Shown here: positions 571 through 9,567 of the stretch, piece by piece
Layout: every line of letters starts with the position of its first letter
How positions within the stretch are numbered: the first letter of the stretch is position 1
DNA from: an uncultured Planctomycetota bacterium
GTDB lineage: Bacteria > Planctomycetota > Planctomycetia > Isosphaerales > Isosphaeraceae
DNA length: 64,000 nucleotides
NCBI GenBank assembly: GCA_963823665.1
Contig: CAWGMQ010000005.1
Span: 1-64,000, forward strand
Direction of reading: 5' to 3'
Translations under genes and position numbers: made by a program
Notes under the pieces: model-generated
Told to the model about the DNA's origin: nothing
What the model saw: the letters and a program-made list of their open reading frames with translations, nothing else
Database searches by the model: none

Positions 571-862
571 GGGATTCCAGACACCCATCCTTTTGTCACG
601 GTCCTCCACATCCATTCATTCGCGGCTCGCACGTTCAGCGCAAAACCACGGCCTCTGGTCATTGGGATTCCAGAGGGATTCCGGGATTCCAGGGGATTCC
701 AGACACCCATGCTTTTCTGACGGCTCTTCGCACCCATTCACTCGCCCTGGCACGTTCAGCGCAAAACCACGGCCTCTGGTCATTTGGAACGCGCCGAAGG
801 CAACGCGCTGCTTGCCAAAAGGTGGGTGTCTTAAATCCGGTGTCTTAAATCCCTAAATCCCC
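571..862 (+). repeat. ~155-bp TIR element family, copy A (partial copy 571-663 plus full copy ~693-862, with stuttered ends)
   Basis: Left end GGGATTCCAGACACCC, right end GGGTGTCTTAAATCCC, shared core GCAAAACCACGGCCTCTGGTCATT. The left motif is reiterated at 664-692 and the right motif at 839-862. Confidence 0.9.
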
Positions 863-1975: not shown

Positions 1976-2384
1976 GAGAACCTCGAAAGTACGTATCGTG
2001 GATCGAGACTGAACCATTCGCGCCGAAGCCAACGCTGGCATCCCGCGACCGGCTTCCGCGCGCCTCGGGCCTCGACTCGAGCGAAGGCGGTGGCGACGAC
2101 ACGAGCGCTTCCTTGAACCGGCGCGTTCCCTCGCCCGCCGACACGGTTCACACCGCGGAACCACGAGGCTCGCCGTCGCCACCGGGTCATGGCTCGCCGG
2201 TCGCTTCGACTCCACCCAAACGTCGCGGTGAAACAATCTCGAAACCACGATGCACCACGCGAAACGGCGCTGTCAAGAAGATTCGCCAAAGAAAGAAGAT
2301 CGAGGAGAAAGAGCGGTCGGCCAGACACGGGGTGATCAGCTCCGACGTCGCAAACCACTTGCGAACGAGCGCCGGGGCAGCCGG

Positions 2385-2742
2385 CCGTCACGATGGAGAC
2401 GACAAGGTCTCCCAAGTTCCCGGGGAACCCTATTGATCATTCGCCATGTTCTCCGACCCCGGTCTGACCAGGCACGCTAGTGGGTCCAGGTGTCGCTAAT
2501 GCCCGGCACGGCCCCCGCGTCAGACAAGGACGAGGGCTCAGGACAAGAAGAGGAAATTTCGAGGCTCAATCGCACAGCGTTTGATCTCGCTGTCTACGCT
2601 TCGCAGTGAGAGTCGCGTCTCCCCACGCAAGACTTGCTTCCGCCGCTGGCCCGGCTCTGCCGGACGGGATTGGTTACCCGCAGGGTTCCACTAAAAGGTT
2701 TCACATTGGAATGATCCTCCTTTTCCGAGCTTCTTGGCGCAA
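2385..2742 (-). mobile_element. Group II intron remnant 1 (5' end and domain I only)
   Basis: Minus strand starts TTGCGCCAAGAAGCTCGGAAAAGGAGG. It contains GCAAGTCTTGCGTGGGG..GCGAAGCGTAGACAGC..TTGAGCCTCGAAA and GGGAACTTGGGAGACC, typical of IIB-type domain I, and is homologous to 8380-8634. No RT or DV follows. Confidence 0.85.
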
Positions 2743-3113
2743 TGTCTGACATCCCCCGCATCGAATCCGAAAGCGAGTTGCTTGATCAAGCCATGATCTT
2801 GGTCGAAGCCGACCATCGAGCTGCTGCCGCTGTAATTGCTGGCGGCGCGTTGGAGACCCACCTGCGATACTACGTGGACAAGCACAGCGTCGCGATTACC
2901 GGGGACGGGTCGATCTCGAAGTATAACAGCGCCGTCGGACAAGCCCGGAAAGCGAACCCAGCACTCTACTCGGCAAACGACGGGAAACTGGTCGAGAGTC
3001 GGGGCGGTTTGCGCAATGAAGCTGCGCATGAACCCGCGAAATTCAACCGGAGCAAGGATGAAATCAAGCGGACGATTGAAGGAATCCGCGAGTTCATACG
3101 GCGCACAGCGTAG
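2742..3113 (+). pseudogene. 5'-truncated paralogue of the HEPN protein at 4037-4705
   Basis: Aligns with the C-terminal ~120 aa of 4037-4705 (AVIAGGALETHL..SISKYNSAVGQARK..RNEAAH) and begins at the repeat stub. Confidence 0.8.
2743..2757 (+). repeat. Right-terminus stub of the ~155-bp element (5' exon of intron 1)
   Basis: TGTCTGACATCCCCC matches the right ends at 6388-6402 and 7236-7248. Confidence 0.75.
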
Positions 3114-4036: not shown

Positions 4037-4705
4037 ATGACGCGACAACAGCTCCAATCCTTCTACGAGCAACTAATCGCGACCGCCGACTCGATGCCAT
4101 TCGAATTGAGCCTGGGAGTTCCAGTCTACAACCAGGCGTCGGCCCACGAATGGGCAACAGAGGCCGAGTCTGCGTTGGCGGCCGTGTTCCCCGAGTCGCA
4201 TCCCACCCGACAGGCTTGGGCTCGTATTCACAAGCATCCAAAAGCGAGATTCGTTGGCGAAGTCTTTGACCAGTTCATGGGAGCGTTTAAGGGGGCATAC
4301 AACCAAATCCGGGATAACAGGCTCGCCTCCCTGATGGACATCATCCGGCTGGAATCGGAGAGCGATTTTCTTGACCAGGCCACCGAACTGGTCGAGGCCG
4401 ACGCCCGCGCTGCTGGCGCTGTGATCGCCGGAGGCGTATTGGAGACTCACTTGAAAAACTACGTGGACAAACATGGCTTATCGTTCGCGGGAAGCGGGTC
4501 GATCTCCAAGTACAACAGCGCCGTCGGGCAAGCCCGAAAATCGAACCCAGGGCAGCTTTATTCGGTTAACGATGGCAAGCTGGTTGAGGCTTGGGGCGGC
4601 GATCGCAATGATGCAGCGCACGAACCGAGTTCGTTCGCGCGAACCAGGGCAGACGTGAAGCGGATGATCGAGGGAATCCGGGAGTTCATTGGGCGAACAG
4701 GATAG
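4037..4705 (+). CDS. HEPN-domain protein (DUF4145-like), putative RNase effector
   Basis: 222 aa; AGAVIAGGVLETHL helix and C-terminal R-x4-H motif (RNDAAH). Confidence 0.75.
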   Translation: MTRQQLQSFYEQLIATADSMPFELSLGVPVYNQASAHEWATEAESALAAVFPESHPTRQAWARIHKHPKARFVGEVFDQFMGAFKGAYNQIRDNRLASLMDIIRLESESDFLDQATELVEADARAAGAVIAGGVLETHLKNYVDKHGLSFAGSGSISKYNSAVGQARKSNPGQLYSVNDGKLVEAWGGDRNDAAHEPSSFARTRADVKRMIEGIREFIGRTG

Positions 4706-6244: not shown

Positions 6245-6402
6245 GGGAATCCAGACACCCACCCGTTTCGTCACGCCCCCCGGCATCCATGCATTGGCGG
6301 CCCACACGTTCGGCAGAGAACCACGGCACGACCGCTGGTCATTTCGACAAAAAGAAGGCGCGAGTCCGACGCTGCGCAGAAGGTGGGTGTCTGACATCCC
6401 CC
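6245..6402 (+). repeat. ~155-bp TIR element, copy B (more diverged)
   Basis: GGGAATCCAGACACCC ... GGTGGGTGTCTGACATCCCCC with a homologous core. Confidence 0.9.
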
Positions 6403-6489: not shown

Positions 6490-6948
6490 ATGAGTGTGCT
6501 CGACATCCGAAAGCCCGGCCGAAGGCAACGTGTCTCCCTTAATACTTTGGGCTCCAGTTTGGGATTGAAGGTGTCCCGGACTGATCAGCTCATTAACCAG
6601 GTCCAGCACGGTCTGTCGTTCAAGGCCCTGGTCTCTCTCGAGGCAATCAGCGGTATGACCGCCTCGGAAATCGCCTCGATCATCGGGATTCCCGCACGAA
6701 CATTGGCCCGACGTCGGGTCGCCGGCAAGCTGGCGCCCGATGAGTCGGAGCGCCTGCTCCGGATAGCCGCGGTTTTTGAGAAAGCGGTGGGTCTGTTCGA
6801 GGGCGACGTGCCTGCCGCCCTCGCGTGGCTGAGAGCTCCCAAGAAGACCTTGGGCCAGCAGAGCCCCTGGACCTTCGCCCGTAGCGAACTGGGGGCTCGA
6901 GAAGTTCTCGATCTGATTGGCCGCTTGGAGTACGGAGTTTTCACTTGA
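6490..6948 (+). CDS. Xre/MbcA/ParS-family antitoxin (RES-Xre TA system)
   Basis: GIPARTLARR..LAPDESERLLRIA..AWL..P...LG..P..ELGAREVLDLIGRLEYGVF. Confidence 0.9.
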   Translation: MSVLDIRKPGRRQRVSLNTLGSSLGLKVSRTDQLINQVQHGLSFKALVSLEAISGMTASEIASIIGIPARTLARRRVAGKLAPDESERLLRIAAVFEKAVGLFEGDVPAALAWLRAPKKTLGQQSPWTFARSELGAREVLDLIGRLEYGVFT

Positions 6949-7050
6949 TCGTCTAATTACCTCGTGAATCCTCGCCATGCAGACTTTCCTGAGCTTCAGG
7001 TTGGTAAACCATCCCGCTTCCGTTTCGACCCTCGGTTGACCGGCAAATGA
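6945..7050 (+). pseudogene. RES toxin remnant (almost entirely deleted)
   Basis: SNYLVNPRHADFPELQVGKPSRFRFDPRLTGK* is a typical RES-toxin C-terminus and directly follows the antitoxin stop. Confidence 0.8.
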
Positions 7051-7097: not shown

Positions 7098-7248
7098 GGG
7101 ATTCCAGACACCCGTCCTATCGGCACGGTCCCCCGCATCCATTCATTCGCGGCTCGCACATTCGGCGCAAAACCACGGCCTCTGGTCATTTCGAACACGC
7201 AGAAGGCCAGCGCCCGACGCTCGGCAAACGATGGGTGTCTGACATCCC
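7098..7248 (+). repeat. ~155-bp TIR element, copy C
   Basis: GGGATTCCAGACACCC ... ACGATGGGTGTCTGACATCCC. Confidence 0.9.
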
Positions 7249-8091: not shown

Positions 8092-8107
8092 GAGGAGCCG
8101 AGGAGCC

Positions 8108-8634
8108 GCTGGGTAGGTCTGGGTGGTTGACCACCCAGACCCCCCGCAGATCCGTGCTCGCGCAATTAACGCACACGGCTCCTCATTTCAAACCTTCGCT
8201 GCTCGACGGTACACCGAGTGGACAACGATCGCTGCTGGGAGCGGATACCGCTCCAGCAGACGATACATTCGCTCCCAGGCGACTTCGCCGCCGCGGTGGC
8301 GTCGGCCAAGCCATTTCCTCCAGGATGCATAAACCTGGAGTTGGTAAGCCGGAACCTCGGCCGCCAGTCACGCCGGAAATGGCAGGGTCTCTCAGGTTCC
8401 CGAGCGACCCTCATGTCCCTACGCCCTGTTCTCGGACCCAGGTAGGACCGAACACGCCAGGCCGTTGCGGCGTGTCGACGCGGCCCCCGCTTGTGTCTAC
8501 AACGGAGGCTCCCACGATGAGTATTTCGGGGCTCGATAGCATGGCATGGGGACTCGCTGTCTACGCTGCGCAGTGAGGGTCACCCCTCCCCACGCAAGAC
8601 TTGCTTCCGGCTGCCGGCCAGGCTCTGCCGGGCG
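8108..8634 (-). mobile_element. Group II intron remnant 2: partial domain I, last ~50 codons of the maturase, DV and DVI
   Basis: Minus strand DV GAGCCGTGTGCGTTAATTGCGCGAGCACGGATC and DVI GGGGTCTGGGTGGTCAACCACCCAGACCTACCC. These are preceded by WRKWLGRRHRGGEVAWERMYRLLERYPLPAAIVVHSVY (domain X end). RT core deleted. Confidence 0.9.
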
Positions 8635-8740
8635 TCATTCGCGGCACGCAAGTTCGGCGCAAAACCACAGCCTCTGGTCATTTCCAACACGCAGAAGGCG
8701 AGTGCCCGACGCTCGGCAACAGGTCGGTGTCTGACATTTC
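8635..8740 (+). repeat. ~155-bp TIR element, copy D (right two-thirds)
   Basis: TCATTCGCGG..GGCGCAAAACCACAGCCTCTGGTCATTTC..GGTGTCTGACATTTC. A likely left-end variant GAGGAGCC x2 lies at 8092-8107 on the other side of intron 2. Confidence 0.85.
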
Positions 8741-9212
8741 TTTGACGTGCCGTGCCCCCTTTCTTTCATTCGTGGGATTCGTCAGATTCGTGGTTCCGCT
8801 TCCCCGCTCAGCGCCACACAACACGACGATCCGACAGAGCCCCGCACTCCGCTTCGGCCTTTCGCCTTCGGACAGCCACCACTTGGCTCGGCCCATCGTT
8901 CGCGCTCGGTGCTGCGTAATCTCAGCCTCCCCTGTCACGTGACTATCTGGCGGCAGCCGCGCACGCCATGCTACCCGCCGATCATTCCGATTGCCGCCGG
9001 CCGAAGCCAGCCGGACTTTCCGCTGCGAACCGACTGCCGCCGAGCGGAAGTACAGGCGGGCCGAAAACAACGGGCGCGCATGGGCTGTGGGTCTGGTGAA
9101 ATGATGGAAATCCCGATGCGCCACATCGATTGACCGTGCGTCTCGACCCTCAACAGGGACCCGGTTCGGCGTCCTTACGGGTAGAATCGTACACGAAGGG
9201 GGGAGCAAAGCC

Positions 9213-9286
9213 GTGACCACCGTACGTACCGTCATCCACGACCGGCGAATCGAGATTCCCGCACCCGAGGACCTTCCCGACGGTAC
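9213..9286 (+). pseudogene. N-terminal stub of a small antitoxin-like protein, cut by the adjacent element
   Basis: GGGAG RBS, GTG start, MTTVRTVIHDRRIEIPAPEDLPDGT, then the element end. Confidence 0.5.
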
Positions 9287-9567
9287 GGGACGGAAACCGG
9301 GACGCGATTAGTATTTAGCTCGATCGGCCCTGGTATTCCCTGCTATTATACCAAGAACTGCTAGACCGGTTGCGCTTGAGCATGGAGCGAGGACGACCCT
9401 ACGGCGGCGACGACTGGGCACGGCGAACGGTAAAAGAGCTTGGCTTGGAGCACACCGTCCGCCCGGAGGGACGGCCGCGTAAGGTAGGCCAGCCCGGGAC
9501 CGATCCAGCTCGCTAAATTCGCGCAATACTCGAACACAAAACTGTCCCCGTCCCTGTTTCGGTCCCC
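9287..9567 (+). mobile_element. Internally deleted REP-associated tyrosine (Y1/HUH) transposase element
   Basis: Ends GGGACGGAAACCGGGACG and the reverse complement of CGTCCCTGTTTCGGTCCC match at 16/18. 9352-9516 encodes LDRLRLSMERGRPYGGDDWARRTVKELGLEHTVRPEGRPRK, typical of RAYT C-termini. Confidence 0.7.

Follow-up and report, generated by a model that had tools for sequence, protein, structure and literature searches.

A decayed group II intron from a clade that probably specialises in the terminal repeats of HUH/Y1 elements

The accessible sections of a review of bacterial group II introns list three target classes (PMC4424553). The closest known system to the one described here, judging from the available part of its description, is RmInt2 of Sinorhizobium meliloti (class D, IIB3), which homes into the inverted repeats of ISRm17; En-minus introns such as RmInt1 and RmInt2 reverse-splice into the lagging-strand template (PMC4615759). 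Group IIC-attC introns, according to the accessible text of PMC4424553 and PMC7923331, have an EBS1 of 3-4 bp and no EBS2, and use a DNA hairpin and a TTGT/T site in attC. The end consensus given in the available parts of the TIRtron/TIRYT literature for subclass 2.1 is GGGGWSAS (PMC3733652; 10.1101/279083), and the word "intron" does not occur in PMC3733652. PMC12584367, in its accessible part, concerns a stop-codon specialist intron, which has no bearing on a Y1-end target. Titles and abstract openings of papers outside subscription made no mention of introns inserted in TIRYT ends, nor of two introns targeting opposite strands as a pair. Here, we describe an intron remnant, intron 2, which on sequence comparison is probably a decayed member of an En-less, IIE/IIF-type clade whose specialised targets are the terminal repeats of HUH/Y1 (TIRYT-type) elements. 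The observation made in a preliminary description of this DNA is confirmed with corrections, and its interpretation is partly supported.

The window, by which we mean the whole stretch of 64,000 nucleotides analysed, contains two different group II intron remnants, as had been claimed (Table 1). The Rfam model group-II-D1D4-6 (RF02005) matched domain I of intron 2 with 122.7 bits at 8427-8641 on the minus strand and intron 1 with 96.5 bits at 2447-2673. The hexamers AGACAC and CAUCGU, previously assigned to a domain I stem-loop and to the EBS2 position, indeed occupy the Id3 hairpin loop and EBS2, respectively. Intron 2 is inactive, being 5′-truncated and internally deleted, and has no function of its own. 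Missing from it, in comparison with intact relatives, are ~83 nt at the 5′ end, D3, most of D4 and most of the RT gene: the sequence jumps from D2 to the last 43 RT codons, a point at which the closer relative L022 retains 340 further bases. Its make-up is mosaic, with a domain I near family A (92%) and L093 and a 3′ half near L022 (94%). The 3′ end of the intron (D5-D6) lies at 8108, and GGCTCCTC follows it in two copies; this junction is precise, and the next base is G, as EBS3 = C demands. On the truncated 5′ side lie the right 108 nt of copy D, in agreement with the earlier statement that the remainder of copy D is found there, and the fusion point (8634/8635) coincides with a CGAAT microhomology. 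Because the first ~83 nt are missing, the intron's own 5′ exon is not visible.

Table 1. Intron remnants, their functional parts and copies of the 150-bp element in the window (coordinates are window positions).
Feature	Position	Strand	Remarks
Intron 2, group II remnant	8108-8634	-	Domain I from ~nt 84, D2 5′ part, RT C-terminus, D5, D6
EBS2 CAUCGU (DNA CATCGT)	8514-8519	-	18/20 listed family-A sites pair at 5-6 positions
EBS1 AGACAC, Id3 hairpin loop	8493-8498	-	6/6 pairing with 5′ exon in 19/20 listed family-A copies
EBS3 (C), partner first 3′ exon base G	8434	-	Covariation with 3′ exon in 39/44 junctions
RT/maturase ORF, last 43 codons	8188-8325	-	53% to family-A IEP residues 380-422
Domains V + VI	8108-8181	-	D5 loop 5 nt; fold z = -6.1
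Intron 2 3′ exon, GAGGAGCC x2	8092-8107	+	Outer half of end-motif satellite; intact doubled motif precedes AGACACCC at L251
Intron 1 remnant (family B)	2375-2742	-	3′-truncated; lower boundary approximate; EBS1 UGUCUG 2521-2526, EBS3 G 2454
Intron 1 5′ exon	2743-2757	+	Outer part of right end; minus-strand reading GGGATGTCAGACA|
150-bp element copy A	571-852	+	Left half duplicated, plus right end
150-bp element copy B	6246-6400	+	Diverged
150-bp element copy C	7098-7247	+	Intact; empty family-A site 7240|7241, family-B sites at both ends
150-bp element copy D, right 108 nt	8635-8742	+	Fused to intron 2 at CGAAT microhomology

Several further features share the window. A 3′ fragment of a TIRYT-type gene lies between GGGAC-type ends at 9283-9560, 550 bp to the right of copy D, and is comparable to L087 and L090. 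Between copies B and C (6490-7050) there is an Xre/MbcA-type antitoxin gene, followed apparently by just the tail of its RES toxin. Two copies of a gene of unknown nature (2748-3113 and 4337-4705) are 76% alike over 214 nt; the first is 5′-truncated and begins directly behind the 5′ exon of intron 1.

Both introns have relatives in the host genome (G000, 16.5 Mb), for which all counts are lower bounds, the best 40 of 91 and the best 40 of 106 candidates having been scored. At least 20 family-A copies are present, 88-89% alike over domain I. Among the 20 listed, 14 are ORF-less and six carry the RT gene. Thirteen of the ORF-less copies are complete, 732-733 nt long and 96.6-100% alike (mean 98.9%), and the remaining one carries a nested intron. 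The RT gene is uninterrupted in two of the six, and its product is an RT plus maturase of 424 aa that matched Pfam RVT_1 only; no HNH (En) domain was found in this IEP by Pfam search. One gene for the 424-aa IEP lies at G000:C6:911683-912954. Positions -9 to -2 read as the invariant TGGGTGTC before all 20 listed copies and position -1 is T in 19, so that the junction is exactly GTGTCT| in 19/20, as EBS1 AGACAC predicts. The 3′ exon begins with G in 11 of the 13 junctions read.

The full target foreseen in the preliminary description, ACGATG-N-GTGTCT, is present a single time in the 64 kb, at 7228-7240 in copy C (0.005 occurrences predicted from base composition), and the bottom strand of the left end of copy A carries the announced one-mismatch version, AGGATG-G-GTGTCT. 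Genome-wide, the EBS1 half of this prediction held at the junctions and the EBS2 half proved too strict: exact IBS2 ACGATG precedes just 2/20 listed family-A insertions, and the commonest form is ACGGTG (7/20), which involves one G.U pair. EBS2 nevertheless pairs at 5-6 of 6 positions in 18/20 filled sites versus 73/150 empty motif copies (Fisher p 5e-4, the copies not being independent).

Family B, with EBS1 UGUCUG and EBS3 G, has the junction CAGACA|CCC. The cuts of families A and B fall on opposite strands of the quasi-palindromic core GGG^TGTCT^G, 5 nt apart; together with their placement on separate branches (see below), this bears out the proposal that two lineages with different EBS sets use one GTGTCT/AGACAC core. 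On the top strand family B occupies left ends (L025, L026, L027, L030, L245) and on the bottom strand a right end (window 2742). Of the 20 listed family-A copies, 11 occupy right ends and two occupy left ends of whole elements; a site resembling a left end holds one, the left end of a Y1 gene holds another, 244 bp ahead of that gene, and five are elsewhere. On contigs C11 and C6 all introns lie on the plus strand, A at right ends and B at left ends, and at the reversed elements C11:579484 and C6:1327217 a family-A intron sits in the left end, on the same strand as its neighbours. Because both families occupy both ends, the earlier statement that the two introns target opposite termini is true strand by strand, but not overall, where family A is found at right (11/20) and left (2-3/20) ends and family B at both. 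Public sequencing runs (best share 0.49) yielded contigs of relatives only, and no joint skipping the intron was among them, which is uninformative.

Other observations on the host genome concern the behaviour of these and further introns. Two pairs of family-A copies (L003/L008 and L015/L016) are arranged head to tail with 24-34 nt of regenerated target between them. At L064:5170 and 6452 and L065:10255 and 12632, an end motif leads into the initial 8 nt of family A, beyond which the sequence is unrelated, possibly an insertion scar that itself spread. A third intron, encoding a 564-aa RT-maturase-HNH protein (L061:13706-16127, L063:8782, L067:9443; seven copies in the host genome), nests at one fixed spot, the D5-D6 border, in family A and family B alike, and is a twintron-forming hyperparasite. 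Introns with EBS1 GGACGC (L028, G000:C8:519918-520234; L524, L529, L530), a third specificity in this genome, are inserted in ends of the GGGACGCA type that belong to a different Y1 family.

The target of intron 2's family is the end motif CAGACACCC/GGGTGTCTG of an element with a HUH/Y1 transposase of ~405 aa. CAGACACCC occurs 257 times in the genome versus 52 times for the reversed control. The enzyme escaped a Pfam Y1_Tnp search and was located via one metagenome locus (L359), where the inverted end motif flanks a HUH-Y1 gene, and then by protein search. Of 120 pattern loci, 80 were examined and three gave a Y1 match (L359, L334 and, marginally, L312); L334 was rejected as a cognate locus, its gene being unrelated and IS200-like. 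Among the 18 closest long-Y1 loci, from four genomes, 15 show an end, CAGACACCC or GGGTGTCT, at a distance of 150-350 bp and five have both ends, with the polarity seen in the 150-bp repeat; CAGACACC was present at none of four more distant long-Y1 loci. The protein, one gene for which lies on the minus strand at G000:C3:449019-450236, contains HLH and YVDLNP motifs, matched the RAYT model NF047646 with E 3e-8 and 33.7 bits, below the cut-off of 80, and had no PDB match. The 150-bp repeat, whose interior is present in 5/121 genomes of the order, is a probable non-autonomous partner of this element: its ends alone are shared, and nothing in its interior matched the sequences flanking the Y1 copies examined. 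A probable enzyme is thereby assigned to a repeat that carried no annotation. Other Y1 loci have inverted ends in 13/39 cases, with the cores GGTGTCAG, GGGGACAT, GGGGTCAT/G, GGGGACAC and GGGACGCA. These cores are the sites of homologous introns, the matches spanning 9-13 nt and extending beyond IBS1 (for example GTATGGTGTCC| and ACTAGCTGCGTCC|), and at L287 an intron lies within the end repeat on the 5′ side of a Y1 gene.

Domain I homologues were found in 60/121 genomes of the order. Of 65 distinct Id3 sequences, 54 have an EBS1 that pairs 6/6 with the 5′ exon of the same intron (over 2000 permutations the mean was 6.0 and the maximum 15), and EBS3 is the Watson-Crick match to the first 3′ exon base in 39/44 junctions. 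The sites fall into two polarities of one core, GGTGTCA|G, GGGGTCA|G, GGGGACA| and GGGTGTCT|G on the one hand and CTGACA|CC, CTGACC|CC, ATGTCC|CC, GTGTCC|CC and CAGACA|CC on the other. Class 1 (intron 2, family A and the TAGCG introns) inserts after GG(G/T)G(T/A)C(A/T)| and has EBS3 = C, whereas class 2, to which intron 1's family and others belong, has EBS3 = G and enters the opposite strand at a distance of 5 nt. Both polarities on one core were seen in 6/26 other genomes with a readable junction, at most five copies being scored per genome (G031, G054, G061, G070, G071 and G115). A TIR-type core, defined by a regular expression composed after the sites had been seen, is present at the junction in 35/43 ingroup rows versus 0/21 outgroup rows; eight ingroup rows set apart for a differing EBS1 have non-TIR targets (0/8 in a TIR-type core). 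A Y1 gene lies within 1.4 kb in only 3/43 ingroup rows, plus L287, and most sites are solo repeats.

Some members of the clade depart from the common form. Introns at L151, L156-L159, L165 and L210 have EBS1 CUUCGU, GCUUUG or CGUUUU and lie at purine-rich sites away from Y1 ends. ORF-less forms of 729-746 nt (L105, L109, L113, L120, L025) recur across branches and genomes. At L108 (G108) and L287 (G037), other RT-bearing introns are nested in the IEP frame near the YADD motif.

The insertion site of intron 2 itself was assessed from its 3′ exon, which had been read as a variant of the element's left end. The motif GAGGAGCC-AG(A/G)C(A/G)CC does exist, with 10 occurrences in the genome and none for the control, but in 0/10 is it the element's own left end, and it never stands directly before the element body. 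Six of the 10 are satellite copies of the end, placed 41-63 bp outward of the true left end, and one such satellite, L251, has the doubled GAGGAGCC found behind intron 2. The site of intron 2 was therefore most likely such a satellite, ~41 bp outside the element's left end, where, by inspection, its EBS2 would pair at only 3/6. The intron would have inserted on the minus strand at the satellite end left of copy D and would afterwards have lost ~170 bp across its 5′ junction (120 bp if seated in D's own left end).

Two other accounts bear on this locus. Instead of being a separate insertion, intron 2 could have arisen by recombination or as a 5′-incomplete cDNA that became joined to copy D through microhomology, its exact original site being unknowable; the CGAAT at the fusion point and the mosaic make-up of the remnant both fit such an origin, which we regard as unlikely yet deserving of some weight, given a precise 3′ junction followed by the G that EBS3 = C calls for, within a motif that elsewhere precedes AGACACCC. 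Were it correct, it would alter the history of this one copy and not the targeting rule. The preliminary description further drew a parallel with attC-targeting introns in integrons. On an integron reading, the 150-bp repeats would be attC-like cassette sites of an integron-type array and the introns hairpin-reading analogues of IIC-attC introns. The repeats do recur every 1-3 kb, with TA genes and genes of unknown nature in between, and their ends are able to pair. Yet no RYYYAAC/GTTRRRY box is present on either strand of copies A, B and C, and the repeat forms no significant hairpin (fold z -0.9 to -1.0). No integron integrase exceeded the cut-off in the host genome (best IntI match 112.6 bits vs 265), the genes between repeats run in both orientations, the same ends flank Y1 genes, and insertions are found at lone ends too. 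With no R boxes, no significant hairpin and no IntI above the cut-off, the attC reading of the repeat was rejected; we consider it very improbable, and the analogy is a loose one, an EBS2 and a 6-bp EBS1 being unlike IIC-attC introns.

A third account is true convergence, in which unrelated lineages independently found an abundant intergenic repeat and there is no clade-wide specialisation on Y1 ends. We built a domain I (RNA) tree with the EBS columns masked and an IEP tree, both without near-identical copies (25 loci skipped), the RNA tree also without 15-17 distant or truncated rows and the IEP tree without L108, in whose ORF a foreign RT is nested. A single clade of AGACAC and UGUCUG introns was rejected (p-AU 9e-6), and domain I of the two groups is only 69% alike, both as convergence would have it. 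So is the support for the joint clade in the IEP tree, where 37 ingroup rows separate from 17 outgroup rows at 90/96, below star level, and the outgroup was drawn from the 78 loci listed. In the domain I tree, however, both introns fall among 48 ingroup rows that split from five outgroup rows at 100/99, and the TIR-type core is confined to the ingroup in the comparison given above. Moreover, introns with UGUCAG, GGACA(U/C) or GGUCAG are present in both main branches; end-targeting is therefore older than their split. We consider convergence improbable. Within the clade, the top-polarity class, window intron 2 included, forms one group (98/90, domain I tree), and intron 1's branch has 100/100 in the IEP tree. 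Introns 1 and 2 thus lie on separate branches of one mostly end-targeting clade, which speaks for parallel retargeting rather than convergence of unrelated introns: judged from these trees, they would have reached the same end variant separately, from ancestors already aimed at Y1 ends. "Converged", as the preliminary description put it, is right as to separate branches and too strong in that both introns belong to one clade that mainly targets the end motifs of Y1 transposases. The IEP of family A groups with the opposite-polarity UGUCAG group (98/85), which suggests that domain I may have been exchanged between the polarity classes.

From these data, we infer the mobility and strand bias of the introns. 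With an IEP that has no En domain, a lariat RNP would reverse-splice into single-stranded DNA at the replication fork; only one strand would therefore be open per locus, and two classes that find opposite termini on it would not compete for the same end. Insertion of either class would split the IBS1 of the other, and the ORF-less 732-nt copies would move in trans, using RT-bearing copies. We lean slightly towards a strand partition in which the two families, on a given strand, each encounter a different terminus. The window agrees with it, both introns being on the minus strand, B at a right end and the A-type intron at a left end, and so does the arrangement on C11 and C6. Family-A clusters lie on the locally G-richer strand in 9/10 cases, although the skew is noisy, flips along contigs and counts the introns' own ORFs; neither the window remnants nor several family-B remnants match this pattern.

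A broader reading, which we offer tentatively and would put slightly below an even balance, is that two standing polarity classes of one long-lived clade divide every Y1 element between them, with EBS1 retuned in parallel for each end variant and domain I swappable. Since only a single replication strand is open to reverse splicing, the left end would go to one class and the right end to the other. Retuning would proceed in parallel by one or two bases of EBS1, as in the pairs UGACAC/UGUCAG on GGTGTCAG, AGACAC/UGUCUG on GGGTGTCTG, UGACCC/GGUCAG on GGGGTCAG and UGUCCC/GGACAU on GGGGACAT. If this is true, RNA-guided parasites partition their niche at single-base resolution, and the history of the host's Y1 ends is recorded in the EBS1 set. 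In any case, the clade offers a natural series of retargeted EBS sets, among them a strand switch that takes no more than two EBS1 changes plus EBS3, and on this series the way in which RNA-guided target choice evolves can be tested directly.

From its RGHYAYYG maturase motif, the IEP may be of class E. The available text on IIE/IIF introns describes features that are also found here, namely an extra Id3 stem-loop, a 5-nt D5 loop, an IIB-like EBS set and an RT-X protein without En (PMC3753933, PMC3552965). Two IEP groups, both formerly class F, were excluded: g2, which is characterised by FADD in the accessible part of PMC3552965, since the family IEP has YADD, and g3, the IEP being 36% identical to Ni.ha.I1 and branching outside g3 in the tree.

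The system shares with TIRtrons/TIRYT (subclass 2.1 TnpA-Y1), as far as the accessible descriptions go, Y1 genes between inverted ends and ends that spread also as solo, dimer and cluster repeats (PMC3733652; 10.1101/279083). Several homologue intron targets are GGGGWSAS exactly (GGGGTCAG, GGGGACAC), whereas the window core GGGTGTCTG differs from that consensus at two positions and points outward from its gene, and the enzyme here is longer, at ~405 aa (33.7 bits vs an 80-bit cut-off). Like group IIC-attC introns, the clade is specialised on a repeated intergenic site of another system (PMC4424553, PMC7923331, accessible text); unlike them, it combines a 6-bp EBS1 with EBS2 and EBS3, at a GTGTCT|G site that is not attC. 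ORF-less introns are the majority form (14/20 listed), though the accessible part of the review deems them rare in bacteria, and the ends of TIRYT-type HUH elements would add a target class to the three that it lists (PMC4424553). The likeness to RmInt2, as presented in the available part of PMC4615759, is the closest: both systems are En-minus, use the inverted ends of another mobile element with both ends usable, and have a relaxed EBS2, a lagging-strand bias (which for the present introns we infer) and head-to-tail copies. They differ in that the target here is a HUH/Y1 end motif together with solo repeats, that EBS1 has been retuned across a whole clade to match several variants of the end, that a single core serves two polarity classes staggered by 5 nt, and that the majority of copies carry no ORF (PMC4615759).
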